Shown one piece after another: positions 4,243-57,067 of a stretch of 64,000 nucleotides of DNA (positions within the stretch are counted from its first letter, which is position 1; the number at the start of each line of letters is the position of its first letter). The notes beneath the pieces were generated by a model, which was given only the letters and a program-made list of their open reading frames with translations, ran no database searches and was not told the DNA's origin. The stretch is taken from contig CP064968.1 in the NCBI GenBank assembly GCA_016699245.1, forward strand, positions 15,654-79,653. Direction: 5' to 3'. Both the position numbers and the translations under genes were made by a program. This DNA comes from Candidatus Kaiserbacteria bacterium (GTDB lineage Bacteria > Patescibacteriota > Minisyncoccia > Phycocordibacterales > UBA918).

Positions 4243-4304
4243 TACCTAGACCTAAACCCAACTGTTTTAAAACGAGCAGGGTTCTATCCTAGAAAGCGGT
4301 GCCA

Positions 4305-4630
4305 CCTCAAAACTCTTATTCGGCACCACTTTATATCTGCACGCATAAGCCCCAGAATTAAAACCTAAAGGTTTTAATTCTGGGGCTTTGCTCCGCTCGC
4401 CCAATGAGGGCTGTGCGAGGCATCTCTAAAGTGGCGCACTCAACAAGTTTTGATACGAAGATGCACATGAACAAATCCGTTGACGCACAACTTTTGCAGC
4501 GCCTCGCGCAAGGCCACGCAGGCCGAGCGGAGCAAAAACCTAGAATACCAAATGCGAAGCATTTGGTATTCTAGGTTTTATGCGTGCGGGGCAAAAGTTC
4601 GTGCCGAGAAAGGATTTGTGGTTTTTGAAC
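4305..4630 (+). mobile_element. MITE-like / structured repeat element, copy A (family with long terminal inverted repeats; other copies at 14626, 22907, 57068)
   Basis: The left arm CACGCATAAG-hairpin-CTTTGCTCCGCTC and right arm GAGCGGAGCAAA-hairpin-TTTATGCGTGC are reverse complements. The outer TIRs (CAAAACTCTTATTCGGCACCAC... and ...AACCACAAATCCTTTCTCGGCACGAACTTTTGC) are shared with the other copies. The central CGTTGACGCAC...CTCGCGCAAGGCC block is conserved in three of four copies. Confidence 0.5.
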
Positions 4631-6836: not shown

Positions 6837-6892
6837 TACAAAGCACCGCCAAAGCAGTACTTTGATAATTATTTAATTTGCTCTTTATATTT

Positions 6893-7477
6893 ATGGAAAT
6901 TACATCAGCACAGCTTAAGGAATTACGAGAGTTGACCGGAATCTCTGTTATGCAGTGCAAGAAGGCTCTTGAAGAGGCAGGAGGTGACATGGAGAAAGCA
7001 AAGATTATCCTGCAGAAGAAGGGGGGAGAAATTGCGCTCAAGAAATCAGATCGTGCACTCGGTGCAGGTGCTATTGGAAGTTATGTACACTCCACCCATG
7101 AAGTTGCTGCGCTCGTGCAACTTTCTTGTGAAACCGACTTTGTCGCAAAAAATGAGGAGTTCAGTGCACTTGCACGCGAAATTGCTATGCATGTTGCCGC
7201 ACAGAGTCCTCTCTACATCACTCGTGAAGAAGTCACCGACGAAATACTCGCAAAGGCAAAAGAAGTCTTTATGGCAGAAGTGAAGGATAAACCTGCAGAA
7301 ATGCAGGAGAAAATTCTTGCTGGCAAAATTGACGCATACTTCAAGGACCGCATCCTTATGGAACAACCCTTCATTAAGGATCAAGACAAGACCATTGGAA
7401 CCTTGGTAAGTAATGCTATTCAGAAATTTGGCGAAAACGTTGTCATTAGCGCAATCTCTCGACTTTCAGTAAAATAG
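6893..7477 (+). CDS. tsf: Elongation factor Ts (short form)
   Basis: ITSAQLKELRELTGISVMQCKKALEEAGGDMEKA is the UBA-like N-terminus of EF-Ts, and the C-terminal FVAKNEEF...IDAYF pattern matches. It lies immediately downstream of rpsB, the conserved rpsB-tsf order. Confidence 0.85.
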   Translation: MEITSAQLKELRELTGISVMQCKKALEEAGGDMEKAKIILQKKGGEIALKKSDRALGAGAIGSYVHSTHEVAALVQLSCETDFVAKNEEFSALAREIAMHVAAQSPLYITREEVTDEILAKAKEVFMAEVKDKPAEMQEKILAGKIDAYFKDRILMEQPFIKDQDKTIGTLVSNAIQKFGENVVISAISRLSVK

Positions 7478-7481
7478 AGTA

Positions 7482-7916
7482 ATGAGTACTCTCGAACAAG
7501 TATTTTTAATAAGTGTTTTGTTTGTGGTTGCTCTCGTTTTGCTTTTTCATGTTGAGAGAAAGAACGGTAAGCGTTTTGGAGAGCATCTTCGTATTCGCAC
7601 TGATTATATAGTTCTCAAAGCAACGAAATACGTTCATACGGCACTCAACTACACAGGGCGTGATTTTGTCCGTCAAGTGGCACATTATCTCTTTCATACA
7701 ATTCTTCGCAATGTGCTTGAGTTTACGAGAAGTGCTGAAAAGGGCTTACGTAATATGATACGCATCAATAAGACATTGGCAAAGCGTGCTGAGCGTGAGA
7801 GTGTCACGCGTACTAAACTCGAAGAAATAGCAATTCACAAAGTAGCAACAGCGCTTACCGAGGATGAGAAGCGCATACGTAGGGAAAAGGAATTGCGGGG
7901 CCATCCGCATCAATAG
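7482..7916 (+). CDS. Hypothetical membrane-anchored protein
   Basis: 144 aa ORF with one N-terminal TM helix (FLISVLFVVALVLLF) and a charged helical C-terminus; no recognisable family. Confidence 0.35.
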   Translation: MSTLEQVFLISVLFVVALVLLFHVERKNGKRFGEHLRIRTDYIVLKATKYVHTALNYTGRDFVRQVAHYLFHTILRNVLEFTRSAEKGLRNMIRINKTLAKRAERESVTRTKLEEIAIHKVATALTEDEKRIRREKELRGHPHQ

Positions 7917-8002
7917 GTTGCATTTTTGGACGATTTCTTTCATAATACACCCCGTGCGCAAAAGCGCATTTTTTGTACACAGAAAATATTTATTTTCTTT
8001 GA

Positions 8003-8075
8003 GCCGTCTTAGCTCAGTTGGTAGAGCAACGGTTTTGTAAACCGTAGGTCCTCGGTTCAAACCCGAGAGACGGCT
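8003..8075 (+). tRNA. tRNA-Thr (anticodon UGU)
   Basis: Folded by hand into a cloverleaf. Acceptor GCCGTCT/AGACGGC; D-arm TAGCTCAGTTGGTAGAGC is identical to the E. coli tRNA-Thr D-arm; anticodon stem ACGGT/ACCGT with loop TTTGTAA (anticodon TGT); T-arm CTCGG-TTCAAAC-CCGAG; discriminator T at 8075. Confidence 0.8.
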
Positions 8076-8077
8076 CA

Positions 8078-8419
8078 AAGAAAAGAAATAGAAGTAGTCT
8101 TAGCGAAGGTGGTGGAGTTAAAACAGTGCGGGGCACTGTTTTAAAGTTTTGTAAACCGTAGGTCCTCGGTTGACCAATTTTTCTTACGACCTTAAGGGAG
8201 TTAGAAAAATGGAAATGTCCTTGTGGCGCAAACCCGAGAGACGGCTCAAAGAAAAGAAATAGAAGTAGTCTTAGCGAAGGTGGTGGAGTTAAAACAGTGC
8301 GGGGCACTGTTTTAAAGTTTTGTAAACCGTAGGTCCTCGGTTGACCAATTTTTCTTACGACCTTAAGGGAGTTAGAAAAATGGAAATGCCCTTGTGGTGC
8401 AAGCCCGAGAGACGGCTCA
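8078..8419 (+). repeat. Two tandem 171-bp units of disrupted tRNA-Thr-derived sequence (pseudo-tRNA repeats) plus a truncated third unit start
   Basis: Units 8078-8248 and 8249-8419 are nearly identical. Each has a diverged tRNA 5' half (GTCTTAGCGAAGGTGGTGGAG), a 19-nt palindromic insert (AACAGTGCGGGGCACTGTT) replacing the anticodon-stem 5' strand, an exact copy of the tRNA anticodon loop to T-stem (TTTTGTAAACCGTAGGTCCTCGGTT), a 57-nt insert in the T-loop, and an exact tRNA 3' end (CAAACCCGAGAGACGGCTCA) followed by AAGAAAAGAAATAGAAG. Confidence 0.6.
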
Positions 8420-8454
8420 AAGAAAAGAAATAGAAACTAGGTCACACATGTATT

Positions 8455-8490
8455 AAAAAAGCCCCGATGGTAACTCATCGGGGCTTTTTT
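8455..8490. terminator. Rho-independent terminator (A-tract / hairpin / T-tract; possibly bidirectional)
   Basis: AAAAAA-GCCCCGATG-GTAACT-CATCGGGGC-TTTTTT. Confidence 0.7.
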
Positions 8491-8520
8491 AATCCCTAAA
8501 GTGCGCTATACTCCCATATT

Positions 8521-10071
8521 ATGGCAAAACATTCGCACCTACTCCCCTATGCAAACCGACCAGATTTTAAAGTTGGTCGCGCACCCGAACTTACCGGTCG
8601 AGACCGAGTGCTGTATCGTTTTCTCGAAATCCTTCCAGGTGCAGCATCATGGACAGCACTTGTGGGCATGGTTCTCATGTCTATTTATACACCCTTTTTT
8701 GCGGCATACTTCATTATTGCATTTGCTGTCTTTTGGGTCCTTAAAACTGCTTTTCTTTCATACCACCTTCGTTATAACTGGAAGCGTCTTCGGAGTCACA
8801 TGACTGCTGATTGGAAAAGGATGATTGAGCGTTTTGAGTATGAACATCTGTATCATCTCATTATTCTTCCATACTACAATGAGTCTGAAGAAGTAATTAA
8901 TACATCTCTCGCCTCTCTCGCAGAAGTACGGTATGACAAAAAAAGTATGATTGTGGTGCTTGCGCGTGAAGAGCGTGCAGGTGAAGGCGCTGCACTCGTT
9001 GCAGAACGCATGAAAGAAAAGTGGGGAAGTACCTTTGGCAGTTTTCATATTTCTGCACACCCTGCAAATCTCCCGGGTGAGATGGCCGGCAAGGGCTCCA
9101 ATGCCACGTGGGCAGCAGAAGATGTACGAAAAAAAGTTCTTGACCCTCATGGTATCCGCTACAATCATACACTGGTATCAATTTTTGATATCGACACCGT
9201 CGTGTATTCCGACTATTTCAATTGTCTCGTATGGCATTTTATAACAGCACCGCGCCCACTCAAGAGTTCATTCCAGCCAGTACCAGTTTTCAACAATAAT
9301 ATGTGGGAAGCATCTTCACTTGCACGTGTGGTGGCGATGTCTTCCACCTTTTGGGAAATGGTACAGCAGGAGCGCCCTGAGCGCATGGCGACTTTTTCTT
9401 CCCATTCTGTCTCATTTCAAGCATTGTATGAAATTGGCTACTGGCAGACCAACATGGTCTCCGAGGATTCGCGCATTTACTGGAATCTTCTCCTTGCGAA
9501 TGATGGAGAGTACGATGTGATTCCGCTTTCGTACCCTGTCTCCATGGACGCTAATGCCGCACCGACATTTTTTGGTACAGTTAAAAATATATACAAACAG
9601 CACCGCAGGTGGACCTATGGTGTTGAAAACTTCGTCTACGTGGTGTATCACTTCACGAAGAATAAAAATATTCCCCTTGGCCGTCGCATTAAAATTGCGC
9701 TCCAGCAGGCAGAAGGGTATTGGTCTATGGTCACGAATCCGATTATGCTCATTATTCTCGGTTGGGCACCAATCTTTTTTGGAGGACGTGTCTTTCATGA
9801 GACGGTACTTTCCTACAATCTTCCTATTGTGGTACGCGACCTTCTTATTCTCGCGATGTTTGGTCTTGTGATTTCTTCCATGATATCTCTCACACTCATT
9901 CCAAAACGTCCTGAGGGGAAAAGTCGTTTCGTGTATATTGTGATGGCATTGCAGTGGGTTCTGGTGCCGATTACGATGGTTATCTTTAGTGCGATTCCCG
10001 GGCTCGATGCGCAGACACGACTTATGCTCGGTAAGTATATGGGTTTTTGGGTTACTCCCAAATCCCGGTGA
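8521..10071 (+). CDS. Membrane-embedded family 2 glycosyltransferase (processive, cellulose/chitin-synthase-like)
   Basis: 516 aa with N-terminal TM helices, a cytoplasmic GT-A domain with D-x-D-like segments, the Q-x-x-R-W hallmark (KQHRRW) and several C-terminal TM helices. The stop is TGA. Confidence 0.7.
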   Translation: MAKHSHLLPYANRPDFKVGRAPELTGRDRVLYRFLEILPGAASWTALVGMVLMSIYTPFFAAYFIIAFAVFWVLKTAFLSYHLRYNWKRLRSHMTADWKRMIERFEYEHLYHLIILPYYNESEEVINTSLASLAEVRYDKKSMIVVLAREERAGEGAALVAERMKEKWGSTFGSFHISAHPANLPGEMAGKGSNATWAAEDVRKKVLDPHGIRYNHTLVSIFDIDTVVYSDYFNCLVWHFITAPRPLKSSFQPVPVFNNNMWEASSLARVVAMSSTFWEMVQQERPERMATFSSHSVSFQALYEIGYWQTNMVSEDSRIYWNLLLANDGEYDVIPLSYPVSMDANAAPTFFGTVKNIYKQHRRWTYGVENFVYVVYHFTKNKNIPLGRRIKIALQQAEGYWSMVTNPIMLIILGWAPIFFGGRVFHETVLSYNLPIVVRDLLILAMFGLVISSMISLTLIPKRPEGKSRFVYIVMALQWVLVPITMVIFSAIPGLDAQTRLMLGKYMGFWVTPKSR

Positions 10072-12208: not shown

Positions 12209-12258
12209 AAATAGAAAATAGAAGATATAAAATATAAAATAGAAAATAGAAGATATGG
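12209..12258. repeat. Left inverted-repeat arm of the four-helix-bundle gene cassette (ATAGAAAATAGAAGATA units)
   Basis: AAATAGAAAATAGAAGATATAAAATATAAAATAGAAAATAGAAGATATGG immediately after the pheS stop. Its reverse-complement partner is at 12630-12670. Confidence 0.6.
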
Positions 12259-12632
12259 AAAATAAAAAAGAAGTGTCACAGACAGAGAAGGAAGTTTTTA
12301 AGATGAGACTTATTGATTTTTCTGTTTCAACTATGAAACTGTGTCATGATTTTCGCAAAGATCCCACACTTTGGTCGTTGAGTGATCAACTGATTAGAAG
12401 TGCAACTTCGATTGGAGCAAATATTAATGAAGCACAGGGAGCAAATTCTAAAAAAGATTTTGCAAATTATTTTCAAATCGCACTTAAATCAGCTAGAGAA
12501 ACTCGATATTGGATACAAGTAATAGAGCGTTATAACAGTAAGATAAAAGATATCGAGTTCGTACGTAATGAAAATGAAGCGCTCATAAATATCTTGCATG
12601 CTTCATTAAAAACCCTGAGGTCGAAACTGTAA
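12255..12632 (+). CDS. Four-helix-bundle protein (23S rRNA intervening-sequence protein family)
   Basis: SDQLIRSATSIGANINEAQGANSKKDFANYFQIALKSARETRYWIQVI matches the conserved core of the 23S-rRNA-IVS / four-helix-bundle family (GANIAEG...KDF..FL.IA.GS..E). It is inserted between pheS and pheT. Confidence 0.7.
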   Translation: MENKKEVSQTEKEVFKMRLIDFSVSTMKLCHDFRKDPTLWSLSDQLIRSATSIGANINEAQGANSKKDFANYFQIALKSARETRYWIQVIERYNSKIKDIEFVRNENEALINILHASLKTLRSKL

Positions 12633-14625: not shown

Positions 14626-14965
14626 AAGAACTCTTTCTCCGTACCACTACGGCCATCTAAAATCCTTTCTCGGCACGAACTTGAAAAAACCACGCATAAA
14701 CCTAAAACCATCAATCCTTCGGATTGGTGGTTTTAGGTTTTGCTATGCTCGCGCTGTGTGCGCTCCGCAATGCTTTTTTAAAGTTGTGCCTCAACGGATT
14801 TTTACGTATATGCCATTAAGAACTCGTTGACGCACTGCTTTTATGCAGCCTCGCGCAAGGCCCCACAGGCCGAGCGGAGCAAAGACCCAAAACTCACATT
14901 CTACGAATGTGAGTTTTGGGTTTTATGCGTGCTGAAGAAAAGCAGTGCGGAAAAAGAGTTCTGTC
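14626..14965 (+). mobile_element. MITE-like / structured repeat element, copy B
   Basis: Same architecture as copy A: left TIR AGAACTCTTTCTC...AAATCCTTTCTCGGCACGAAC...CACGCATAA, central CTCAACGGATTTTT...CTCGTTGACGCAC...CTCGCGCAAGGCC, right arm GAGCGGAGCAAAG-hairpin-TTTATGCGTGC-TGAAGAAAAGCAGTGCGGAAAAAGAGTTCTGTC. Confidence 0.5.
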
Positions 14966-22906: not shown

Positions 22907-23309
22907 ACAGAACTCTTTCTCTGAACTCTTTTCCTAAAATCCTTTCTCGTCACGAACTTTTGCCCCGCACGCATAAGGCCTGAGAACTAAAAGCAATGCT
23001 TTTAGTTCTCAGGCCTTTGCTCCGCTCGCCCAATGAGGGCTCCGCGAGGCGCTGCAAAAGTTGTAACTCAACGGATTTTAGTAAAAGAACTCGTTGACGT
23101 ACTGCTTTTATTCAGCCTGCCTAGATTCTTCTTATGAGCGAAGCAAATTAGAAAATCTTGGCTGTCGCCACATGCTCTCACAATGCAATGTGGTGACCAG
23201 GACGACCTCAGGGGAGGAGCGGAGCAAAGACCCAAAACCCGCATTCGTAGAATGAGGTTTTGGGTCTTATGCGTGCTGAAGAAAAGCAGTGCGGAAAAAG
23301 AGTTCTGTC
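22907..23309 (+). mobile_element. MITE-like / structured repeat element, copy C
   Basis: Left TIR GACAGAACTCTTTCTC...AAATCCTTTCTCGTCACGAACTTTTGCCCCGCACGCATAAG, right TIR CTTATGCGTGCTGAAGAAAAGCAGTGCGGAAAAAGAGTTCTGTC (its reverse complement). Internal hairpin arms and a central CTCAACGGATTTTAG...CTCGTTGACGTAC block are conserved with copies A, B and D. Confidence 0.5.
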
Positions 23310-25119: not shown

Positions 25120-26014
25120 AATTTTGTATATTTAACTCTGAATAAAAGTCCGTGTCGCTGGATCTAGCGATTAGCCCGAGAAGGGGAGAATCGAGATTCA
25201 GATTCGACAACCTCTTTGTGTTCGTTTGCTCATCTAAAAAACGCCCAAGCAAAAACACGATTTCTCATGTTTTTGCTCGGACGATCTTTGCATTCCTGCA
25301 AGCCGCGGTTCCACCGAGCTTCCGAGAGTTTTGCTCTCGACGCTTATATGCAGATTAGGTGCTCATATATGAGTACGCCCAAGAGGGCTGACGTTTGGTA
25401 GACGTCACAACTTCTGATTCACTATGGTAGCGTGTCTGCACCCAATGTCAAATTGGAGCATAGGGAAGCGAGAAGGGGAACTGGTATGGGATGTGGAGTG
25501 GTGTAAAATAGCCAGACAAAATACATCTTGCGCGGAAGTATGCATGAGGATATCTCATGTGGATACATCCGGTTGAAACCTCTTTTTCACCAGTATCCGA
25601 ACTAAGATAAAAGCACTCACTTTTTAAAAAAAAGAATGCTTCCACATTCTCGATTAGCCGAGATATTTATATAATAATGGGTTTTGTAACCCCGAGGACT
25701 AACCTAGGAGAATCTCCTATGATAGTTCTCGGAGTGCGCACATAGTTAAATCATGCTCTATGTGTGACATCGTAAGTCACCCATACGTCTGTTCGACTTA
25801 CGATGTCGACCATCGTAAAGTTGCCCCGAGGGCTATCCTAGGGGAAAGACTTCGGGGTATGCCACTGACCTGCCTAAGGTCTTGTCTCGCGAGAATATGT
25901 GCTCTTAAAAATTTGGACATTCGATCTCCTAATTTTTCCTTTAAATATAAAATGAAGTGTTGAAAGTTATCCACGAAAAATACTCTGTGTTGCGTCACTT
26001 TTTCGATACAATAT
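25120..26014. other. 900-bp non-coding region upstream of the giant surface-protein gene, containing conserved hairpins (candidate ncRNA / regulatory leader)
   Basis: No ORF with protein-like composition. Long hairpin GACATCGTAAGTC-(16 nt)-GACTTACGATGTC at 25766-25807 shares its stem with the hairpin upstream of rpsP (53213-53287). Paired related motifs CCGAGGACTAACCTAGGAGAATCTCC (25695) and CCGAGGGCTATCCTAGGGGAAAGACTTC (25826). Confidence 0.4.
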
Positions 26015-29000
26015 ATGTATTCGTACATGCAACAGTCTGATGCCACAGTGAGTACCTCGCGCGACCAGTTCTTTTTGGAAAGAATAGGTTTTTTCTTTAC
26101 TCAGTGTTTTTTACATGCACGAGGAGTGCATCATAAGAAGGTCTCACTGATTGTTGCATTTGGACTTTTTTTGATAGTGGTTTGTTTTCCTTCGGCAAAG
26201 GCTGAGGCCGCAATTCAATTTGTCGGTTCTACGACTGCATCGGGCGATAATGCCGCATACAATCTCTCCCTCACCGGACTCACGGGGGGTATCTCGAGTA
26301 CTGCAGCACAGGATGATTTTGTTGTTGTGGTAAATACATACGTTGGTACTGCAGATGGTAATCCTGGCGTCGGCACAGCGGGCTATACAGAAATGGCCGA
26401 TTTGTATGCAAATAATAACAGAGACGTTAATTTCTCAGTGAATTATAAGTTTATGACGGCGACTCCCGATACAACAGTTTCTTGTAACGGGAGTGCAACG
26501 GCCGGTAGTGCATCGACCTGCCTCGCGATGGTTTTTCGGGGTGTGGATCTCACGACGCCGATGGATGTCGCATCGACGACGGCAACCAGTAACACTACAG
26601 AAGACGTTGATTGTCCCGCAATAACCCCCGTCACCAGTGGATCGTACGTACTCTGTACAGGAGGGGGTGCGGGAGCAAATGTCGACGCTGCGATTCCTGC
26701 AATTGCAGGGTACGCTCATGCATATCTGCAGTTTGATTCCACCAACTACACTTCTGCATCAGTTGGTGCGTATAAGGCATGGACATCAGGCGCCGAAGAT
26801 CCTGCAGCATTTGTTATGGACTTAGGTACACAGGCGAACAATTCAATGGCGGCACTCACTATGGCATTACGTGAACAACGCACCGTCTCCCTCTCCTCCG
26901 CCTCCAACCAAGTCTTTTCATACGCGCAAGCAACGACCACCATCAGCACCATCACCATTACCGATAACGTGGGCGCATCGGTCACCGCAGCAAACGACAT
27001 CCGCATCCGCATCGCCTCTACCTCCCTCACCATGAAGTGGGACACCACCGACACCACCGCCACCTTTGGCGGTACCGCCTCGGGCAAAGTATCAAACCCC
27101 GTCTCCTACGAAAACAATGGCACGACACTCGTAATACCTGTAGACACCAACTTTAGTGCAGGAGAGACACTCACGGTGAGTGGACTCTCCTTCACCCAGT
27201 TCCTCGGCACCAGTACCGCAACCACGGGGCTCAACATGTACCTCGCGGGAGGAAGTGACGCCGTGAGTGATGGTGCTGATGATAAGACGATAGTTATCTA
27301 TTCCGCCTTGCCCACCCTCACCACTCCCACCGCCACCGCCATTAGTTCCACTACCGCAACCCTCGGTGGCACCATCGTAAGTAACGGTGGGGGACTGACC
27401 GCCCGTGGTACCTGCTGGGGCACGACCCCATCCCCCGTCACCAACTGTGTTGCAGAAGGCGGTACAGGAACGGGTGTCTTCACGCAGGCACGCACCGGCC
27501 TTTCGCAGGCCACCTTCATCTACGCCCGTGCCTATGCCACAAACGCTACCGGCACCGCATACTCAAGTGACACCCTCTTCCTCACCGAAGGCACCTTCGT
27601 ACCGGGTACGGAGAATGTCACCGCAGTGGGAACGAGTACTGCAACGATAGGGGGGACGATCTTAGGTTCTTTCTCGACTTTTACGACTGCAACAGATACG
27701 CCAGAGGCAAACATAAAAGCCCTCACCGTTGACTCCGTAAATGGTGTTCTCTACGCAGGGTCAGATACGAATGGATACATCTACCGCTGTCTCCTTTCTA
27801 CAGGGTGTGACTCCACTGGAGATTTCACTATTGTATATGACACTGCGTCTACAGATATGTTCGCACTCACTATTGCGAGTAGTACTTTGTATGTAGCAGC
27901 AATAACAGGTGCAGGTTTTGGCACCATCCACCGATGCCTCCTCTCCACGGGGTGTGACGCTTCGGGTGATTTTACAGAAGTGCTTAGTAGTCCTGTTGAC
28001 TTCTTTTATTCGTTCACCGTTGATTCTGTTAACGGTGTCCTTTACGTAGGAGGAAGTTATGCTGGTACCCAGGAGTCTATCCATCGATGCCTCCTCTCCA
28101 CGGGATGTGAAGACTGGGGTGACTTCTCACAAGCGTATAGCACGTTTGTAAGTCAAAAAATTATCTCCCTGACCATCGCAAGTAGCACCCTCTACGCAGG
28201 AACGGACACAGAAGGTATTATCTACCGATGCCTCCTCTCTACAGACTGTGACGCTACGGTAGATTACACAACTGCTTTCGACACCACAGAAACAAAAATT
28301 CTTTCTCTCGCGTTTGACTCAGTTAACGGCGTCCTCCATGTAGGGACAAGTCCGAACGGCATCTTTTACCCATGTCTCCTCACCACGGGGTGTGACGCCT
28401 CGGGTGATTTTAATAGTCCCGCGAACACGGCCGATGACGAAATATACTCCATCATATTTTCAAGCACCACACGCTACGCAGCCACGGGTCCTCGTGGAGT
28501 CATCTACGCATGTTTCCTCCCCACGGGGTGTGATGGCCTCGGCGCCTTCACCACCGCAACAGACACCCCTGCGACCGCTATCTACGCTCTCGCCATCGAC
28601 TCCGCAAATAATGCGCTCTACGCAGGCTCGGGCGCAGACGGCATCATATACAAAAGCGAAATAGGTCCCGCATACCCCATCACCGAACGTGGCACCTGCT
28701 GGGGAACCAGCCCATCCCCCGTCACCAATTGCCTTGCCACCTCAGGGACGAGTACCGGCGCCTTCACCCATGCACGTACTGGTCTTCCGAGTGGCACTCT
28801 CATCTACGCGCGCGCGTATGTTACCTATGCATCAGGCACCGCATACTCAGCTGACATAAGTACCACCACTCTTAGTGTGCCACCAACCACCCTCTCCTCC
28901 GCCTCCAACCAAGTCTTTTCATACGCGCAAGCAACGACCACCATCAGCACCATCACCATTACCGATAACGTGGGCGCATCGGTCACCGCAGCAAACGACA

Positions 29001-29650
29001 TCCGCATCCGCATCGCCTCTACCTCCCTCACCATGAAGTGGGACACCACCGACACCACCGCCACCTTTGGCGGTACCGCCTCGGGCAAAGTATCAAACCC
29101 CGTCTCCTACGAAAACAATGGCACGACACTCGTAATACCTGTAGACACCAACTTTAGTGCAGGAGAGACACTCACGGTGAGTGGACTCTCCTTCACCCAG
29201 TTCCTCGGCACCAGTACCGCAACCACGGGGCTCAACATGTACCTCGCGGGAGGAAGTGACGCCGTGAGTGATGGTGCTGATGATAAGACGATAGTTATCT
29301 ATTCCGCCTTGCCCACCCTCACCACTCCCACCGCCACCGCCATTAGTTCCACTACCGCAACCCTCGGTGGCACCATCGTAAGTAACGGTGGGGGACTGAC
29401 CGCCCGTGGTACCTGCTGGGGCACGACCCCATCCCCGTCACCAACTGTGTTGCAGAAGGCGGTACAGGAACGGGTGTCTTCACGCAGGCACGCACCGGCC
29501 TTTCGCAGGCCACCTTCATCTACGCCCGTGCCTATGCCACAAACGCTACCGGCACCGCATACTCAAGTGACACCCTCTTCCTCACCGAAGGCACCTTCGT
29601 ACCGGGTACGGAGAATGTCACCGCAGTGGGAACGAGTACTGCAACGATAG
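26015..29650 (+). CDS. Giant secreted repeat protein, 5' segment (about 1140 aa in frame before a 1-nt homopolymer deletion)
   Basis: N-terminal signal/TM (KKVSLIVAFGLFLIVVCFPSAKAEAA). Contains FN3-like modules (TCWGT.PSPVTNC...GTGTG.FT.ARTGL...IYARAYATNA.GTAYS) and ~45-aa YRCLLSTGCD...GDFT repeats. An 874-bp segment (26891-27764) is duplicated perfectly at 28892-29763 except for C5->C4 at 29432-29436 and G6->G5 at 29650-29654. The ORF ends at a TAG created by the frameshift. Confidence 0.75.
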   Translation: MYSYMQQSDATVSTSRDQFFLERIGFFFTQCFLHARGVHHKKVSLIVAFGLFLIVVCFPSAKAEAAIQFVGSTTASGDNAAYNLSLTGLTGGISSTAAQDDFVVVVNTYVGTADGNPGVGTAGYTEMADLYANNNRDVNFSVNYKFMTATPDTTVSCNGSATAGSASTCLAMVFRGVDLTTPMDVASTTATSNTTEDVDCPAITPVTSGSYVLCTGGGAGANVDAAIPAIAGYAHAYLQFDSTNYTSASVGAYKAWTSGAEDPAAFVMDLGTQANNSMAALTMALREQRTVSLSSASNQVFSYAQATTTISTITITDNVGASVTAANDIRIRIASTSLTMKWDTTDTTATFGGTASGKVSNPVSYENNGTTLVIPVDTNFSAGETLTVSGLSFTQFLGTSTATTGLNMYLAGGSDAVSDGADDKTIVIYSALPTLTTPTATAISSTTATLGGTIVSNGGGLTARGTCWGTTPSPVTNCVAEGGTGTGVFTQARTGLSQATFIYARAYATNATGTAYSSDTLFLTEGTFVPGTENVTAVGTSTATIGGTILGSFSTFTTATDTPEANIKALTVDSVNGVLYAGSDTNGYIYRCLLSTGCDSTGDFTIVYDTASTDMFALTIASSTLYVAAITGAGFGTIHRCLLSTGCDASGDFTEVLSSPVDFFYSFTVDSVNGVLYVGGSYAGTQESIHRCLLSTGCEDWGDFSQAYSTFVSQKIISLTIASSTLYAGTDTEGIIYRCLLSTDCDATVDYTTAFDTTETKILSLAFDSVNGVLHVGTSPNGIFYPCLLTTGCDASGDFNSPANTADDEIYSIIFSSTTRYAATGPRGVIYACFLPTGCDGLGAFTTATDTPATAIYALAIDSANNALYAGSGADGIIYKSEIGPAYPITERGTCWGTSPSPVTNCLATSGTSTGAFTHARTGLPSGTLIYARAYVTYASGTAYSADISTTTLSVPPTTLSSASNQVFSYAQATTTISTITITDNVGASVTAANDIRIRIASTSLTMKWDTTDTTATFGGTASGKVSNPVSYENNGTTLVIPVDTNFSAGETLTVSGLSFTQFLGTSTATTGLNMYLAGGSDAVSDGADDKTIVIYSALPTLTTPTATAISSTTATLGGTIVSNGGGLTARGTCWGTTPSPSPTVLQKAVQERVSSRRHAPAFRRPPSSTPVPMPQTLPAPHTQVTPSSSPKAPSYRVRRMSPQWERVLQR

Positions 29651-29654
29651 GGGG

Positions 29655-32600
29655 ACGATCTTAGGTTCTTTCTCGACTTTTACGACTGCAACAGATACGC
29701 CAGAGGCAAACATAAAAGCCCTCACCGTTGACTCCGTAAATGGTGTTCTCTACGCAGGGTCAGGAGGTAGTGGCATCATCTACCGCTGTCTCCTTTCTAC
29801 AGGGTGTGATTCCACAGGAGACTTCGTTATTGCGTATGACACTACACATTCAAATATCTCCTCTCTTGCCATTGCGAGTAGTACTCTGTTTGTTAACGGC
29901 TTTACAAGCACAGACAATACTGTTGTGTACCGCTGTCTCCTCTCCACGGGGTGTGACGCCTCGGGTGATTTTACGACTGCATGGACACCATCTTCTCCTC
30001 AATCAAGCCGTACATTAGTTGCAGATTCAGTAAACAACATACTCTACATGGGGGGTCAAGATAATTCAGATCAATTTACAATTTATCGATGTGCCCTTTC
30101 TTCGGGATGTGACTTCCAGACTGACTTCACGACTGCATATGCACCTGCCGCACAGATAGACGTCCATTCCCTCACCATTGCCAGTAGCACGCTCTACGCA
30201 GGCTCGGGTAATGGTGGTAATATTTACCGCTGTCTCCTCTCCACGGGGTGTGATGCTGATGTGGATTTTACCCTTGCATACAACACCACAGAATCGCAGA
30301 TTTATTCCCTCACGAGTGACTCAGCTAATGGTGTTCTGTATGTAGGGACGAGCCCGAACGGCATCATCTACCGATGCCTTCTCACGACAGGTTGTGACGC
30401 CTCGGGTGACTTCACGACGGCAACAGACACCCCACAGACAGATATCTACGCTCTCACCATCTCAAGTAGCACCCTCTACGCAGGCACGGGCGCAAACGGT
30501 GTCATATATCAGTGCCTCACCTCCACAGGCTGTGATTCTACAAATGACTTCACCACCGCAACAGACACTCCCGCTACCACTATAAACGCTCTCGTCATCG
30601 ATTTCGCGAATAGTTCTATTTACGCAGGCTCCGGTGCTACGGGTATCATATACAAAACCAGTATAGGTTCCGCATACCCCATCACCGAACGTGGCACCTG
30701 CTGGGGCACGAGTCCCAACCCCGTCACCAACTGCCTTGCCACCTCAGGGACAAGTACTGGTGCCTTCACCCATGCACGCACTGGCCTTCCCCAGGCTACC
30801 CTCATCTACGCTCGAGCGTATGTTACCTACGCATCAGGCACCGCATACTCAGCCGACGTAAGCACTACCACCCTCGGCGTCGCAGCACCCACCCTCTCCT
30901 CAGGAGCCAACCAAGCCTTTTTCTATGGTCAAGCAACCACCACCATAAGTACCATCACCATTACCGACACTCCTGGCGGACTCGTCACCGCAGCAAACGA
31001 CATCCGCATCCGCATCGCCTCTACCTCCCTCACCATGAAGTGGGACACCACCGACACCACCGCCACCTTTGGCGGTACCGCCTCGGCCAAAGTATCAAAC
31101 CCTGTCTCCTACGAAAACAACGGCACCACACTTGTGATTCCTGTTGACACCAACTTTGGAACAGGGGACACCCTCACCATAGACGGACTTTCTTTTTCAC
31201 AGTTCCTTGGGGTGAGTACCGCCACCATCGGGCTCAACATATACCTCGCGGGGGCAAGTGACGCCGTGAGTGATGATGCCGATGATAAGACGATGAGTAT
31301 TAGTTCCACCACCCCTACCGTTACCACCCCCACTACCACTGCTATAGGCCTTAATAGTGCAACTCTCGGCGCTACCATTACGAGTGACGGTGGGGGAACA
31401 CTGAGTGCGCGCGGTACCTGCTGGGGCACCAGCGCATCCCCCGTCACCAACTGTACCGCAGAAGGCGGTACGGGAACGGGTGTCTTTACGCAGGCACGCA
31501 CCGGTATGGCGACGGGTACTCTCTACTACTATCGTGGATATGCGACAAATGCCTCGGGTACGACATATTCGGCAGATGGTACCTTTAGCACCAATGCTGT
31601 TCCCGTACTCACTACTCCCACTGCTACTGCCGTGGGTTCAAGTACCGCTACCCTCGGTGCTACCCTTGTTTCCACAGGTACCAACACTATTAATGCTCGC
31701 GGTACCTGCTGGGACACGAATTCGTCTCCCACCATCAACTGTCTTGCAGAAGGTGGTACGGGAACAGGTGCTTTCACGCAGGCACGTACAGGTCTGACAG
31801 CGGGCACACTGTACTACTATCGTGGGTATACGACATATACTGACGGTGCAAGTGTCACCCGTACCGCATATTCAGCAGATGGCACATTTGTAAGTTCAAC
31901 CACCCCTACACTCACCACCCCCACCGTTACTGCCGTCAGTTTTACAACCGCAACATTCGGCGCCAATATCACGAGTGACGGCGGAGCACCACTGAGTGCC
32001 CGTGGTACCTGCTGGGGCACCAGTGCGTCCCCGGTGACCAACTGTCTTGCAGAAGGCGGTACGGGAACGGGTGTCTTTACGCAGGCACGCACCGGTCTCC
32101 CCCAGGGCACACTCATTTACGCCCGCGCATACGCAACAAACGCATACGGTACTTCATACTCAGCCGATATAAGTACTACCACCAGCATCTCCACGAGTGA
32201 TCTCATCATCTCCGGTACCCTCTATAGCGACGAAGGGGTCACCACGATAAACGGAGGGAAGACCATTGCTCTCGCTATCGGCACCACCACCCCCTCAGTC
32301 CACACCACTACCTCCAATGGTTCTGGCGTATGGACTGCTACCATCCCCACCGGCCACACCATCGGCACCTCTACCCCTATCCTCGCTTGGGTAGATAATG
32401 ACGGCACCACCCGTGCCGCACTCCTCACGAAGGCAACATCCACCTCTAATATCTCTGGCCTTAGTCTCTATAAAGATAGAGTGATTGTGTCGCATGAGGC
32501 AACAAGTGGTACCTCAACGACACTCACTGACATGTCCTTCTATGACAACGACAACGACAGTGACATTCAATACAATGCGACAACAACAAGCGCAGGGCTT

Positions 32601-35600
32601 GTATTAAACGCTGGCAACGAACTCCATATCCAAACAGGGAAGTCCTTCACTCCCCTAGGCGCCGTCACCATACAGGGGAACGCCGGCACCGGCACCGATG
32701 GTTCACTTCACCTTCCTGCAAGTAGCATCTACACCGCAGGAGGCACCACCACCCTTGCCGGCAATTTCACCGCATCATCCTCCGCAACCTTTACCCCTGG
32801 CACCCACACCCTCACCTTTAATGCAACGACCACCGGAAAGAGTATTGATGTACCACTCGCTACCCTTGGTAACACCACCTTCAATGGAGCAGGTGGTGCA
32901 TGGGCGTTTGCATCAGCAGCCACCACCTCAGCCCTTACCATCACCGCCGGCACCCTAACTGCTCCCGCCACCAGTCTTACCATCCTCGGTAACTACCAGA
33001 ACAGTGGCACCTTCACTCACAACAACGCCACGGTCACCATCGCCTCCACCACCGCCGCACAGGGTATCATGGGTACTGCCACCGGTACGTCGGCCTTCAG
33101 TACGCTCCGCATCATCGGTGCTACCACCACTGCTCCAACATCAGGCCTCGTCGGTAAATGGATGTTTGAGGAGGGAAGTGGCACGACGGTGCGGGATGCG
33201 AGTGGGGGTGGGAATACGGGGACGCTCAATGGAACTCCTTCTTGGATTTCTGAGAATAGGGGTAAGGCAATTTCGCTCAATGGAACAACAGATTATGTAG
33301 CTATTCCTAACTTGATACAGACTCATCGTAGTGACATTACTATCGCCACGTGGTTCAAGACGACCACAACGGGTGTAATTGCGGGATATCAAGCTGGTAT
33401 GGTGGGAAGTGGTCCCAGTAGTTATGTTCCCGCTATCTATATCGGTACCGATAATAAAATTTACGCTCAACTATGGGATGGTGCGACACACCCAATCACA
33501 ACTTCCGGAACGTATACCGACGGTGCTTGGCACCATGTTGCGCTCGCAGTCTCAGGCGGTAATAGCCAATCCCTCTACGTTGACGGTTCGTTTGTGGGGA
33601 TTCTCAGTAATGCAATTACTGATTTTGGTGCAACCTATTCGCAGTTTGGTGCTGGGTACACCACAGGGTGGACCAACGCGTCTGGTGGGTTGACTTATTT
33701 TGCTGGTTCTCTTGATGATAATCGAATCTACAACCGCGCGCTCACCGCGAACGAAATCAGCGACCTCTATAACGAACGTCCAAAAGTCTTCTCACAAAAC
33801 GCCTCTACCACCAACCTCATCATTGAATCCGGTGTCGTGTCCGCACCACCATCTCTGAGTATCGCCGGCGACTACCAGAACGCAGGCGCCTTCCTCGCGA
33901 ACGCCGGCACCACCACCTTCAACGGCACCACCACCTTTAGTGGCGTGAGCGCCCAGACCCTCGGTGGCACCATGACGGGCGCAAGCGCCTTTGGAAACGT
34001 GGAGTTTACCGGCGGAGGACTCAAGTCTTTTGCGACGACGACTACGAATGCAAGTACATCTAATTTTATGGTGGATGCCGGCGCGACGGTCGTCGCGCCG
34101 GAAAACCTCTCCGTCTCTGGTCAATACACCAACAACGGCACGTCCTCAAACCCAGGAGGGAAGGTGTGGACCAGCCGCACCGCCGCCGCCTACAACATCT
34201 GGCAATCCGTCACCTACGGCAATGGTCTCTTTGTGGCGGTGTCTGGTACTGGCGCTGGCACAATCAACGACCGCGTCATGACTTCCCCTGACGGAATCAC
34301 CTGGACCCCCCGCACCGCCGCTACCAATAACTACTGGTACTCCGTCACCTACGGCAACGGCCTCTTTGTGGCAGTGGCTGGTTCCGGCACCATAAGCGAC
34401 AAAGTCATGACTTCCCCTGACGGCATCACCTGGACCCCTCGCACCGCCGCCGCTGACAACACCTGGCGCTCCGTCACCTACGGCAATGGGGTCTTCGTGG
34501 CGGTGTCTGGTACTGGTGCCGGCACCATCAACGACCGCGTCATGACTTCCCCTGACGGCATCACCTGGACCCCTCGCACCGCCGCCGCCAACAACTCTTG
34601 GTGGTCCGTCACCTACGGCAATGGCCTCTTTGTGGCGGTGGCTGAGACTGGCACCATCAACGACCGCGTCATGACCTCCCCCGACGGCATCAACTGGACT
34701 GCCCAGACCGCCGCTGCCAACAACAACTGGGTCTCCGTCACCTACGGCAATGGCCTCTTTGTGGCAGTGGCTTTTTCTGGCACCATCAATGACCGCGTCA
34801 TGACCAGCCCCGACGGCATCACCTGGACCCCCCGCACCGTTGTCGCCAACAACACCTGGGTCTCCGTCACCTACGGCAATGGCCTCTTTGTGGCGGTGTC
34901 TGGTACTGGAGCTGGTACCGTGAACAACCGCGTCATGACCTCCCCCGACGGCATCAACTGGACCGCCCAGACCGCCGCCGCCAATAACGAATGGGTCTCC
35001 GTCACCTACGGCAATGGCCTCTTTGTGGCGGTGGCGTACTCTGGTTTCAATCGCGTCATGACAAGCGCGGTCGGTACCACCACCTTTAGTGGCGTGAGCG
35101 CCCAAACCCTCAATGGCACCATGACCGGCGCGAGCGCCTTCGGCAACGTCGCCTTTACCAACACCAGCGCTACCACCACCTTTGCAAGTAACGCGAGCAC
35201 CTCTAATTTCACCACTGCATCAAACACAATCGTCGTTGCTCCATCCAGCCTTTCTCTTTCCGGAGACTACACAAACAACGGCCGTTTCGTCGCCGGCACC
35301 GGCACCACCACCTTTAATGGCAATACGACACAGACCGCCACCGGCACCATGACGGGTACGAGTGCGTTTAGCAACCTCACTATTACGAACAGTGTCGCCT
35401 CCACCACCTTTGTTACTCCACTGACGGTAAGTGGCAAATTCACTGCCACGACCCCCGGCACTATCATCATCCTCAGTTCACAGGGCACCACCACCTTCGC
35501 TACTGCAGGAATCATTGGTAGCAGTACAGAGAGCATCACTCTCCGCGCCACCACCCCTGGCACGCAAGCACCCCTTGATATAGAGGGCACATACACTCTT

Positions 35601-38600
35601 TCGTATATAAACGTCAAAGATTCCAATGCCTGTGATAACGCCATTGCCCTCAGTGGTACCGGTCTCACCGACAGTGGCAATAACACGTGTTGGACTTTTG
35701 CCTCAGGTTCAGTGATTGTACTTTCCGGTATCCTCTATAGCGACGAAGGGACAACACCTATTACCGCGCCAAAGACATTGGGTATCATGGTGGGTACATC
35801 GACACTGAGTCTCCATAGTACGACCTCTGCAGCATCAGGTGCTTGGAGTTTTACCGTACCTGCAGGGCATACCATTGTTCAGGGGACTCCTATTCTCGTC
35901 TGGGTAGACAATGACGGTTCTACGCGGGCGTCGCTCGTCACCAAAGCAGATTCATCATCCGCCGATATATCAGGACTTAATCTGTATCAAAATAGGGTGA
36001 TTGTCTCGCATGAGGGTGCTGAAGCCATCACGCTCTTAGCTATGACTCGGTATAATAATAGTGATGATGCTGATATTCAGTTTGAAGCGGTTGATGCTGA
36101 GGGATATATAGGACAAATCTTTTCAGGGAACAAATTGTATATCAATGCAGGGAAAACATTTTCTCCTGATGGAGAGTTAACCATAGGTGCCAACGCCAGT
36201 TCCTCAAGTGTCGATGGTGCCCTCCACATAGCGAGTGGTGCTACATATAAGCAAATGATGCCAAATAATAATTGGACCTATATCGGAGGTTCACTCACTG
36301 CATCATCTACGGCAACTATCATAAATAATGGTACATTTCAATTCACTGCGTCTACCACGGGGAAGAGTATTAACGCCACTCAGCCACTTGGTAAGGTCAC
36401 TTTCGCAAACACCGCGAGCATGTCCTTTGCCACGAGTGCCACGACAACCAACCTCACTATCAACGCAGGTGCGTCGGTTGTTGCACCCGCTAGCACGCTC
36501 ACGATTCTTGGTGACTATACCAACAACGGCACCTTTACCCACAATGGGGGTACGATACTCTTCGCAAGCACCACACAGGCACAGTTTTTGCGTGGTACGC
36601 TCTCGGGTACCTCTGCCTTTGGTACACTTAGTTCTGTGGGTAATACGACCACCTCTCCATCTGGACTCATAGGGAAGTGGAACCTCGATGAAGGATCGGG
36701 GACAGAAGCATACGATTCATCGGGAAATGGTAATACCGGTACGCTCACCAATGGTCCAACCTGGAAAGCAGGTAAAGTCGGCCAGGCCGTTGATCTTGGT
36801 GGAGATGATGATTATATCAATGTGGGGTCTCCAGCGTCGCTCGATGATGTCACCCAAAAAACCATCACCGCATGGATAAATCCGGTTACCCTTGGTGATA
36901 GTGATTATGGGCGAATCGCTGATAAAGATGCAGGCACAGCGACTGGGTGGTTGTTTTATGTGTCGAACGGAGACAATGTGAGTAGTTTGCGCTTTGGACA
37001 TTATTTTGCAGGAGGTCTTGGTTTTTGGAATACTGGAAACAACACTATTACTACCGGAGGGAACACATGGCAACATGTCGCGGTGACCTACGACAACAGT
37101 TCGGCAAGCAATGATCCAGTCTTTTACATAAACGGTGTATTGAGTCCTCTTGCGTTTGACACTAATAATTCGGGTGCAGCGAATAGTGATGCGGCACACA
37201 ACCTCTGGTTCGGAGACCGTGCGGGGAATGATCGTTCTTTCAATGGAGACATGGACGATATCCGTATGTACAATCGAATTCTTACCGCCGGAGAAATCGC
37301 TACGATATACAATGAACGTCCAAAGTTTATCAATGCGAATGCTTCGACCACCAATCTCTCGATAGACTCGGGCGTGGTAGCCCTGTCATCAACCAGCCTC
37401 TCTATTGCGGGTAACTACACCAACTCGGGCACCCTCGCAGTAACGGGCACCACGACCTTTAACGGCAATACGACACAGACCGCCACCGGCACCATGACCG
37501 GCTCAAGTGCATTTAAGAACGTGGAAATACTCAATACGTCTGCTCCTACTATCTTCGGCGCACCCTTTGCCGTCACCGGCCACTTCAAGGCAACGTCGCC
37601 AAGTATTAGTATGAAGTTTGCAGAAAACGCTACCACATCCCTCAATACCGCTACCCTGTATGGTACCTCAGGCAACAAGGTACAACTTCGCTCAACGACT
37701 GAGGGGACACGTTTTGGTATTGAAATAAGTGGTGCATATGATATTTCGTACGTTGATGTGAAGGATAGTAGTGGCTCCACAACGCTCGGCAATATCACCG
37801 CCACCACATCAGTGGATTCAGGTAATAATAATAGATGGACTTTTATCGCTGATCCCGTACCATCCCTCTCCTCCGCCTCCAACCAGTCCTTCTACTACTC
37901 TGAACCCACCACCACGATAAGTACCCTGACCATCACCGACACCCCCGGCGGACTTGTCACCGCCACAAACGACATCCGCATCCGCATCGCCTCTACCTCT
38001 CTCACCATGAAGTGGGACACCACCGACACCACCGCCACCTTTGGCGGTACCGCCTCGGGCAAAGTATCAAACCCCGTCTCATACGAAAACAACGGCACGA
38101 CACTCGTAATACCTGTTTCGAATGACTTTAGCGCCGCAGACACCCTCACCGTAGACGGGCTTTCTTTCACCCAGTTCCTCGGGGTGAGTACCGCTACCAC
38201 TGGACTCAACATATACCTCGGTGGCGCAAGTGACGCCGTGAGTGACGATGCAGACGATAAGACGATGAGCATCAGTGGACTCGGAACCCTCTTGAATCAC
38301 ACGAGTGGCCAAGTGAGTGACAATATCAATTCCACCACAGAGACAGGCATCCCACTCTTTGCCTTCAATCTCTCTTCAGTGGGTGAAAACAGCACCATTT
38401 CAAACCTCACCCTCCGTATCACGGGAGCCAATGGAGTGAGTACCGGTGACCTCTCAAACTTCGCACTCTACCGTGACAACAACAACAGCAAGACATTCGA
38501 CGCAGGAGATACCGCCGTGGGCGGTTCCCCAAGTGTTACCCTCACGGGTGACAACGGCACCGTGACCTTTAGCACACCATTCAGTGCAACCTCCACCGCA

Positions 38601-56955: not shown

Positions 56956-57067
56956 TGTATTTCTACAGATGATACACTCGCTTGACCTTCGGTAAAGGAA
57001 ATGTCTCAGGATATTTCTCGTGAGTATGATGCTCAGGAAGTGATGTTTAGTGAGTCAATCTCGAGTA

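Follow-up and report, generated by a model that had tools for sequence, protein, structure and literature searches.

A 64-kb stretch of DNA from a Candidatus Kaiserbacteria genome (Patescibacteria, in the candidate phyla radiation, CPR; hereafter, the window, to which all coordinates refer unless a locus is named) contains one intact tRNA-Thr(UGU) gene, followed by two near-identical 171-bp units that carry broken copies of this gene. The explanation that we rank first, and consider rather probable, is that the units are disabled tRNA-Thr copies shaped by small mobile hairpin elements and by unequal recombination with the live gene. Comparisons with related or matching loci and contigs (L-numbers) show that the window array is one case of a lineage-wide state, in which a single essential tRNA gene lies amid partial copies of itself riddled with hairpin elements. 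The interest of the locus is mainly in what it shows of the lineage, and not in the two units themselves. The array consists of the following parts.

7987–8002, + strand: leader strand of the leader-trailer stem, TATTTATTTTCTTTGA
8003–8076, + strand: intact tRNA-Thr(UGU) gene (ARAGORN, tRNA-Thr(tgt); Rfam RF00005, 72.8 bits)
8075–8093, + strand: trailer TCAAAGAAAAGAAATAGAA, the 3' strand of the stem, repeated after the units at 8246–8264 and 8417–8435
8094–8117 (unit 1) and 8265–8288 (unit 2), + strand: diverged pseudo 5' half, GTAGTCTTAGCGAAGGTGGTGGAG
8118–8144 and 8289–8315, + strand: hairpin HP1, TTAAAACAGTGC-GGG-GCACTGTTTTAA, which replaces tRNA nt 25–29 and is followed by AGTTTTGT
8146–8171 and 8317–8342, + strand: exact copy of tRNA nt 30–55 (anticodon loop to T55)
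8172–8228 and 8343–8399, + strand: 57-nt miniature mobile element between T55 and C56 of the T loop
8229–8247 (exact) and 8400–8418 (exact save 8232 A/G), + strand: tRNA nt 56–74

Tandem Repeats Finder reports a repeat at 8058–8435 (period 171, 2.2 copies, 98% matches), in which unit 1 (8077–8247) and unit 2 (8248–8418) differ only at 8218 (T/C), 8227 (C/T), and 8232 (A/G). The original prediction had described an intact tRNA-Thr (called by ARAGORN) followed by two such units, a tRNA-derived tandem repeat in which each unit has a diverged 5' half, an exact copy from the anticodon loop to the T-stem, and a 57-nt block inside the T loop, and all of these parts are present. Its palindrome in the 5' strand of the anticodon stem was also found, although not as 19 nt but as a 27-nt hairpin (12-bp stem, GGG loop), and its exact copy of the tRNA 3' end holds for unit 1, whereas unit 2 reads CAAGC in place of CAAAC, as in the tRNAs of L001 and L012. 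What had been called a Lys-codon-like spacer is instead the 3' strand of a stem: the trailer TCAAAGAAAAGAAATA (8075–8090) pairs at 15 of 16 positions with the leader (7987–8002), thereby extending the acceptor stem. Because the trailer strand repeats with the unit, the one leader has three alternative partners. Neither the 57-nt block nor the hairpin is a chance occurrence (100 shuffles gave an expectation of 0). We set aside minimum-energy folds of the full array as evidence, since the repeats make them degenerate. We consider it highly improbable that the array is an assembly artefact in the form of a collapsed or expanded repeat. Repeats of this size do break short-read assemblies, and the short-read contigs L002, L004, and L010 stop inside the tRNA at nt 26–35, as expected because the repeat starts there. 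However, the units of the window are told apart by three bases, the third trailer runs on into unique sequence, the apparent source is a 1.05-Mb contig, and comparable arrays occur in many independent assemblies.

As judged from their sequence, the units are not canonical tRNA genes and do not decode. The resident gene is the sole tRNA detected by ARAGORN and Rfam in the 64 kb, and the check with tRNA finders that had been proposed for the units gave no call by ARAGORN (whole window) or by the Rfam tRNA model, with no second RF00005 match and no match to any other family at E ≤ 10 over 7900–8560. Their acceptor strands (GTAGTCT/AGACGGC) include one U.G pair and one A/G mismatch, and ACCGT is left without an anticodon-stem partner because the hairpin replaces nt 25–29. 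When the T-loop block is removed the T arm is restored, whereas removal of the hairpin still leaves no anticodon arm. This bears on the case that the original prediction had set against its own, in which each unit would be a true tRNA-Thr gene interrupted at nt 25/30 and in the T loop by archaeal-type or self-splicing introns. The insertion sites resemble non-canonical archaeal tRNA intron positions (PMC4090602 and PMC4390854), and excision of the T-loop block gives a perfect T arm, but excision of the hairpin joins GAG to AGTTTTGTAA with no 5' strand for an anticodon stem. In addition, Rfam returned no intron family and no group I core at E ≤ 10 (bulge-helix-bulge motifs were sought by inspection only), the T-loop block occurs in both orientations and outside tRNAs, and an intact gene lies next door. 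The intron reading is thus effectively refuted, and the hairpin taken on its own as an intron was likewise rejected by sequence. Neither is the array a CRISPR array, as had been stated correctly: the whole 171-bp unit repeats and unique spacers are absent. No riboswitch, T-box, or type III toxin-antitoxin match above noise was found in Rfam for the window locus, L063, or the region at 56.9–57.8 kb, and the gene that follows is no toxin gene: it codes for a conserved GT2 glycosyltransferase and has a promoter of its own.

Related loci were collected with EF-Ts and glycosyltransferase homologues (L001–L007) and with a scan of GTDB species genomes using a glycosyltransferase alignment (L008–L087). 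Among the first 87 loci, the 57-nt block was matched by L008 alone, where it is reversed (reverse-complement score 88 versus 25 forward), and a diverged forward copy lies in the T loop of a downstream unit of L083. A metagenome scan with TTGACCAATTTTTCTTAYGAC returned 15 contigs that carry the element, and a hidden Markov model built from the copies (nhmmer) brought the total to 22 copies of 57–60 nt, with the consensus TTGACCAATTTTTCTTATGACTGAAAGGAATTAGAAAAATGGAAATACTCTTGTGGTGC. Three copies, those of L008, L221, and L226, match this consensus at 100% identity despite their differing contexts. At 13 of the 16 distinct sites, ARAGORN calls a tRNA gene no more than about 400 nt away (Gly, Ile, Leu, His, Ser, Glu, Trp, Pro, and Thr types). 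By our estimate, genomes of this kind hold roughly one tRNA per 20 kb, at which density a few percent of sites would be tRNA-adjacent by chance. The element is mostly found inside a partial copy of the neighbouring tRNA, in either orientation and with at least eight tRNA types besides Thr; for example, a minihelix-type copy of tRNA-Leu holds it in L217.

Removal of GACC...GGTG, with TT^C kept, rebuilds the T arm of the resident tRNA in the window (CTCGG TTCAAAC CCGAG), in L216, and, on the other strand, in L008 (TCCGAAT), and it rebuilds the anticodon arm of a tRNA-Ser copy in L219. The resident tRNA-Thr of L008 (1950–2024) itself has the T loop TCCGAAT, with C55 in place of the near-universal T, yet scores 68.5 bits in Rfam. 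No target-site duplication is visible at the insertions, which read TT^C, and the element ends share only a weak GACCA/..CACCAC similarity. The 57-nt block resembles a miniature inverted-repeat transposable element (MITE) in that it is short and non-coding, its near-identical copies are dispersed, and its empty sites can be reconstructed (window, L008, L216, and L219). We regard it as demonstrated that the block is a dispersed miniature mobile element, independent of any attachment (att) site and not part of one. Both window copies carry the same private substitutions, and thus a single insertion took place before the 171-bp duplication. Two further parts of the window are relatives of HP1 and of this element.

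57195–57297, + strand: E2 element of about 100 nt, ending in TTGCG-AAAGTCT-CCC-AGACTTT-CTCAC, which is HP1 in the opposite orientation
57386–57443, − strand: diverged copy of the 57–59-nt element family (reverse-complement score 51 versus 15 forward; nhmmer E = 8.5e-11)

Another diverged relative of the element lies at 431–488 of L001. It is very doubtful that the 57-nt block encodes a small peptide. The motif AAGGGAG lies 8 nt ahead of an ATG at 8208 that opens the frame MEMSLWRKPERRLKEKK* (8208–8261), this Shine-Dalgarno-like motif and the ATG are conserved in the element, and all three differences between the units fall within the open reading frame (ORF). However, only the first seven or so codons belong to the element, the flank sets the rest (MLLWY* in L083), and the frame is antisense to the tRNA in half of the copies. 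The 17-aa window ORF was rejected as a gene, given that its C-terminus depends on the flank and each site gives a different peptide.

The hairpin belongs to a module that we defined as a D-loop-like ...GGNNGAG, followed by a hairpin of about 12 bp and by tRNA nt 30–36 (AGTTTTGT or CCACTTGT). About 45 such modules were counted in 38 of the 73 loci where a tRNA-Thr(UGU) lies upstream of the glycosyltransferase gene (27 upstream of the tRNA and 13 downstream). The pseudo 5' half that precedes HP1 in the window recurs as the same variant in L001, L011, and L035, and in related forms in L023 and L072. In an alignment of 38 distinct hairpin sequences, all 12 pairs change on both sides, 89% of the cells are paired (66% in shuffles, with 0 of 500 reaching 89%), and the covariation score is 0.63, compared to 0.21 when shuffled and 0.08–0.18 with a slid partner. 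Of 40 sequences, 25 have a GGG loop. There are 9 G.U/U.G pairs against 1 A.C/C.A pair, and tandem G.A/A.G is kept in one subgroup. The pairing and the excess of G.U thus point to a constraint that acts on the tRNA-sense strand.

As DNA, the same hairpin occurs in either orientation. In reverse complement, the E2 hairpin of the window is identical to the HP1 of L028 at 24 of 27 positions, and in L008, E2 forms an inverted pair that brackets the entire tRNA-Thr nest; E2 is also present in L009, L012, and L087, L216 has it next to copies of tRNA-Ile, and L034 has a variant of it. The hairpin family is therefore dispersed and orientation-free as DNA, yet structurally constrained with a sense-strand bias, and it resembles repetitive extragenic palindromes and bacterial interspersed mosaic elements (REP/BIME) in consisting of imperfect extragenic palindromes, in both orientations, that cluster with other modules. 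A role of the window hairpin as an intrinsic terminator is plausible, but a terminator function for the family in general was rejected, as the CACTTGT subgroup has no following U run. At L223 10950–11330, a 5S rRNA-like gene (identified by eye) is followed by HP1-like modules and others of the types found beside tRNA-Thr (a GTGAGAAAGTGT..ACACTTTCTCAA hairpin, a CTCC-TGTAA-GGAG hairpin, and CCC-loop hairpins), so that the modules accompany stable-RNA genes in general. Separately, the window contains an internally palindromic intergenic repeat family of about 320 nt (4300–4620, 14660–14963, 22937–23307, and 57095–57560; 70–83% identity between copies) with no match in Rfam. E2 and diverged inserts of the 57-nt element are carried by the copy at 57 kb and, in L001, by the counterpart of the copy at 4.4 kb. 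Around the copy at 57 kb lies an 870-nt non-coding stretch (56956–57827) with many long-range inverted repeats (e.g., 57123–57136/57305–57318 and 57183–57195/57468–57480), which contains E2 and the minus-strand diverged element copy; a 110-aa ORF there (57337–57669, minus strand) is probably spurious.

The partial copies show a strong polarity across the 73 loci, whose flanking gaps range from 11 to 1750 bp. Counting copies with at least 12 nt of the 5' part, we found 35 upstream of the gene and 4 downstream, whereas copies of the 3' part were found 40 times downstream and twice upstream. Tandem arrays are not limited to the window: downstream arrays occur in L056 (2 × 111 bp), upstream arrays in L008 (2 × 117 bp), L064 (2 × 121 bp), and L034 (2 × 174 bp), and L053 has three copies. 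A comparison across relatives had been suggested for the units, and it shows that their presence, number, and side vary among the 73 loci. Even close relatives (86–96% glycosyltransferase identity) differ widely. Compared to the two units of the window, L001 (96%) keeps the same pseudo 5' half and a truncated hairpin, after which structured sequence of another kind follows. Two modules lie upstream and a single unit downstream in L008, whereas a lone upstream module is present in L009, a lone downstream unit in L011, and nothing of the sort in L013. The live tRNA of L048 is enclosed by two broken copies, one outer and one middle (5' part, hairpin, and start of the anticodon loop on one side, 3' part on the other), with a leader-trailer stem closing each level and matching acceptor strands (GCCACCT/AGGTGGC) in the middle copy. 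Nesting is similar in L020 and L023, and in L023 the broken halves come from a different tRNA-Thr type than the live gene, with the 5-nt TGTAA at both junctions of a 210-nt segment. As separate observations, about ten species (L018, L019, L022, L027, L028, L030, L031, L036, L049, and L053) have the tRNA-Thr, with its modules if present, in inverted orientation between the EF-Ts and glycosyltransferase genes that flank it, and other tRNA genes of related CPR bacteria (Ile, Trp, Ser, Leu, Gly, and Pro) have adjacent partial copies with nested inserts (L216 440–1100, L226 150–550, L219 250–650, L217, L215, and L227).

These patterns would be explained by disabled copies that recombine with the live gene. 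In the window, the disabled copy retains nt 30–76 of the gene, identical save one base in unit 2. A second, partial copy would first have come to exist beside the live gene. The sequence shows the order of what came next: the T loop of this copy took a single insertion of the mobile element, the 171-bp unit was then duplicated, and the three point changes came last. The duplication itself would have arisen by unequal crossing-over between repeats of the '3' part plus trailer'. Continued recombination with the live gene could hold the 3' part identical. For a downstream copy, a crossover in the shared 3' part would delete or duplicate the copy and leave the gene intact, but one in the shared 5' part would delete the live gene. 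Crossovers that leave only a broken copy would be lethal in a genome with one tRNA-Thr(UGU) gene. Downstream copies would thus lose the 5' part or diverge in it, with the mirror case upstream, and the same exchanges could generate tandem arrays such as the 2 × 171 bp of the window. That 3' parts are exact only downstream, and 5' parts only upstream, would follow because recombination proceeds under selection for a single essential gene. The units would then have no role in the cell.

The original prediction had also offered another source, iterated duplication of a tRNA 3' att site by site-specific recombination. In this reading, the units would be attL/attR scars, left when an element of integrase type integrated repeatedly at the anticodon loop or 3' part of tRNA-Thr. 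Partial tRNA copies beside tRNA genes are known footprints of integrating elements (PMC9897764, PMC3146451, and bioRxiv 10.1101/2020.12.28.424599), and the exact repeat from the anticodon loop to the 3' end has the usual extent of tRNA att identity blocks. Cargo genes also vary at the same intergenic spot in relatives, and the TGTAA at both junctions in L023 encloses a foreign-type tRNA-Thr. The cargo includes HNH endonuclease, histidine phosphatase, MazG, and Trp-repressor-like helix-turn-helix ORFs (Pfam; gap ORFs of 21 loci), as well as, by eye, deformylase-, NUDIX-, IMPase-, and pilin-like ORFs. However, the absence of a nearby integrase, which had been noticed beforehand, extends to the relatives: the window neighbours are housekeeping genes, and no integrase was found among gap ORFs of at least 60 aa in 21 of the 73 loci (the rest of the 2.5-kb flanks was outside this screen). 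The 3'-part repeats have almost nothing between them: 17 nt of trailer, 24 nt of pseudo 5' half, and the 27-nt hairpin. The sequence to the left of the anticodon loop is not a copy of an anticodon-stem half-site, and upstream 5' halves, which a 3'-att model does not predict, are as common as downstream 3' parts. When IMG/VR was scanned with the tRNA 3' part, the matches were to complete phage tRNA-Thr genes only: 117 of the 120 fell inside called tRNAs, and the remaining three were truncated at a contig end or uncalled. Nothing beyond chance 19–20-mers came from three patterns of the hairpin/anticodon junction or from that of the mobile element, and these scans thus give no support for a phage attP. 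Taken together, we judge an origin by site-specific integration unlikely.

HNH genes near the tRNA-Thr are present in L077 (684–1100), L082 (1971–2411), L087 (1741–2145), L072 (1963–2463), L019 (1998–2456), and L036 (1976–2392). They thus occupy the gap in 6 of the 21 loci, on varying strands and sides (PF01844 was checked for L087), and none is present in the window. A free-standing homing endonuclease of this type may have added to locus turnover as a possible contributor, but we did not retain it as the driver.

A stronger rival, which we nevertheless consider doubtful, is that the units work as non-coding RNAs of tRNA shape, or act in cis as parts of the pre-tRNA-Thr transcript. Assembled from a D-loop-like segment, a GGG-loop hairpin, a single-stranded anticodon segment, a T arm, and a 3' end, and made from the tRNA operon, they might, for example, act as a decoy or competitor for an enzyme that binds tRNA (RNase P/Z, ThrRS, a tRNA-directed nuclease, or one that modifies tRNA) or tune tRNA-Thr maturation by alternative pairing, with the 57-nt element as a tolerated passenger in a loop. 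We keep it as a strong rival because of the hairpin covariation, the complementary arm, the minihelices, and the long stems. Leader-trailer stems of 13–23 bp, continuous with the acceptor stem, were found in 26 of the 73 loci, the window among them. Stems of different loci are unrelated in sequence, and their pairs comprise 391 Watson-Crick, 37 G.U/U.G, and 7 A.C/C.A. As a side observation, a long leader-trailer stem (AAACCCCTGTCC...GGACAGGGGTTT) is also present at the tRNA-Ile of L216. In many upstream modules, nt 30–36 are followed after 1–3 nt by the exact reverse complement of nt 24–36 of the resident tRNA (a 12–14-nt arm), which tracks both anticodon-stem variants (ACGGT and ACTCA). Therefore, the transcript could fold either as the tRNA or as a composite of the pseudo 5' half, the hairpin, and the real 3' part. 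A domain of about 66 nt with visibly compensating stems (unscored) lies in the anticodon or variable loop of downstream units in L008, L029, L035, L038, L063, L066, and L080. Minihelices (acceptor stem, 5-bp stem, and loop) that end in ...GGCTCC, and so share the NCC tail of the tRNA, lie 3' of the tRNA in L063, L066, L073, L077, L080, L082, L085, and L087.

A role as RNA also agrees with the conserved hairpin loop and the sense-strand preference for G.U over A.C, with the matched acceptor strands of the nested copy in L048, with the location of inserts in loops (anticodon, variable, and T), and with the position of the array within a transcription unit. By contrast, the presence, number, side, and completeness of modules shift between close relatives, and modules are absent in 35 of the 73 loci. 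The acceptor 5' strand is often missing (L056, L063, L073, and L077), the anticodon stem can never form, the modules of L023 match a tRNA-Thr type other than that of the resident gene, the T-loop element occurs in both orientations, and no Rfam family is matched.

Four points weigh against the preferred reading of the units as disabled copies without a role. First, the hairpin pairing and the GGG loop persist where the flanking protein is just 70–75% identical, which points to selection on the structure of the sense-strand RNA (or of single-stranded DNA), something that 'junk' does not need. Second, the minihelices and the nested tRNA-in-tRNA layouts closed by long stems, with 37 G.U against 7 A.C, look designed at the RNA level. 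Third, distant genomes share the pseudo 5' half GTAGYCTTAGCGAAGGTGGTGGAG, in which position 5 tracks the resident acceptor stem, and this suggests constraint or horizontal transfer. Fourth, no transposase or recombinase that would move the elements was identified (for the 57-nt element, none of DDE, IS200/IS605 TnpA, RAYT, or IS110 type). A joint reading, which we put forward only tentatively and think rather improbable, is that bacteria of the Kaiserbacteria type in the CPR make functional tRNA-shaped RNA modules from tRNA (and 5S) operons and that, separately, the 57-nt block stands for a novel type of miniature mobile element, one that would recognise the T-psi-C loop of tRNA gene copies and insert without target duplication. 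The modules would include the GGG-loop units, the nested tRNA-in-tRNA transcripts closed by long stems, and the acceptor/T-arm minihelices, and would serve in tRNA maturation or as a decoy for a tRNA-directed enzyme, a function that their conserved pairing on the sense strand would reflect.

The array lies between the tRNA and a terminator, and it is therefore probably transcribed as a trailer. Signals that flank the transcription unit in the window are listed here.

7918–7946: promoter-like TTGCAT-17-CATAAT, ahead of the tRNA
7954–7979, + strand: short hairpin GTGCGCAAAAGCGCAT then TTTTTTGTACA, between the promoter-like motif and the tRNA, listed as terminator-like
8455–8490: strong bidirectional intrinsic terminator that closes the tRNA unit, with the same layout in relatives
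8503–8512: −10 box of the glycosyltransferase gene, GCGCTATACT

The hairpin at 7954–7979 is kept in L001, L005, L009, and L013, and it may be a worn remnant of an upstream 'hairpin plus anticodon-loop' module, or a terminator or attenuator. The gene order of the window is L31, RF1, S2, EF-Ts (6878–7477), a 144-aa membrane-type protein (7482–7916) with no Pfam match, the tRNA locus, the GT2 glycosyltransferase (8521–10071), a PEGA-like protein, PheS, and PheT. Exact-protein look-ups of two flanking window genes and of P0001 gave no match. Between pheS and pheT, a 125-aa ORF (12255–12632) resembles, by eye, the four-helix-bundle proteins of rRNA intervening sequences. The region at 26000–36000 differs in composition (G+C of 0.52–0.57 and GC skew of −0.16 to −0.19, versus a G+C of 0.42–0.50 elsewhere) and may be acquired DNA, or else one or several very long genes on the minus strand.

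For annotation, pseudo-tRNA units of this kind matter because they break assemblies and invite miscalls. For example, the 93-nt 'tRNA-Pro(ggg)' that ARAGORN calls at L023 2246–2338 is a hairpin-bearing tRNA-Thr-like unit, and a 'tRNA-Stop(tta)' is called at L221 6057–6130 near a copy of the mobile element. For mobile-element biology, an element of 57–59 nt that lands at TT^C near at least eight tRNA isotypes is very small and highly site-selective. For CPR biology, the point is that nests of partial tRNA copies are tolerated, and quickly reshuffled, in genomes of about 1 Mb whose tRNA genes are single-copy, and the polarity rule is a clean natural read-out of recombination constrained by one essential gene. 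If the modules do act as RNA, they would represent a new class of tRNA mimics and an unusual bacterial pre-tRNA architecture, with long stems and nested tRNAs. In the literature searched, we found no description of a miniature element that prefers the T-psi-C loop or of polar hairpin-junction modules in Patescibacteria, nor of nested tRNA-in-tRNA layouts or long leader-trailer stems in a bacterium.

Several known systems share some of these features. Genomic islands at tRNA genes and ssrA, Prochlorococcus tycheposons, and Thermococcales fragments (see the sources cited above for integrating elements) likewise have direct repeats of the 3' part downstream of an intact gene, at hotspots with variable cargo in relatives, and their fragments confuse tRNA finders. 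The loci described here differ in having no integrase among the gap ORFs screened, almost no island between the repeats, equally frequent upstream 5' halves, a conserved junction hairpin, nested tRNA-in-tRNA layouts, and tandem units of just 111–171 bp. The disrupted tRNA genes of archaea (multiple-intron, split, and permuted) have insertions in the anticodon loop (after nt 37/38), near nt 25–30, in the variable loop, and in the T loop (PMC4090602 and PMC4390854), and some join their halves by long complementary stems. In contrast, the present case is a bacterium, removal of the inserts yields no cloverleaf, and an intact tRNA-Thr always lies beside or inside the broken copies. Non-decoding tRNA-like genes are also known, and the tRNA-Other of B. 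cereus flanks an island (PMC3399842). Together with the tRNA-like domain of tmRNA and the YrlA/Y RNA mimics, it resembles the units in having a T arm, the D-loop GG, a 3' end, and no usable anticodon arm, whereas the units are known from sequence alone, vary in copy number and completeness, and often lack the acceptor stem.

The leader-trailer pairs are most like the RNase III stems of rRNA operons, in that 13–23 bp stand in line with the acceptor stem and include many G.U pairs on the sense strand. To our knowledge, such long processing stems are not usual for single bacterial tRNA genes. Lastly, the 57–59-nt element and the HP1/E2 hairpins resemble MITEs and REP/BIME in being short, non-coding, hairpin-forming, and dispersed, in occurring in both orientations, in nesting, and in differing by presence or absence between genomes. 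The 57-nt element stands apart from these in its weak terminal inverted repeats, in having neither a visible target duplication nor an identified partner transposase, and in its marked preference for tRNA-type loops, where it enters the T-psi-C loop at TT^C and, in one case, the anticodon loop.

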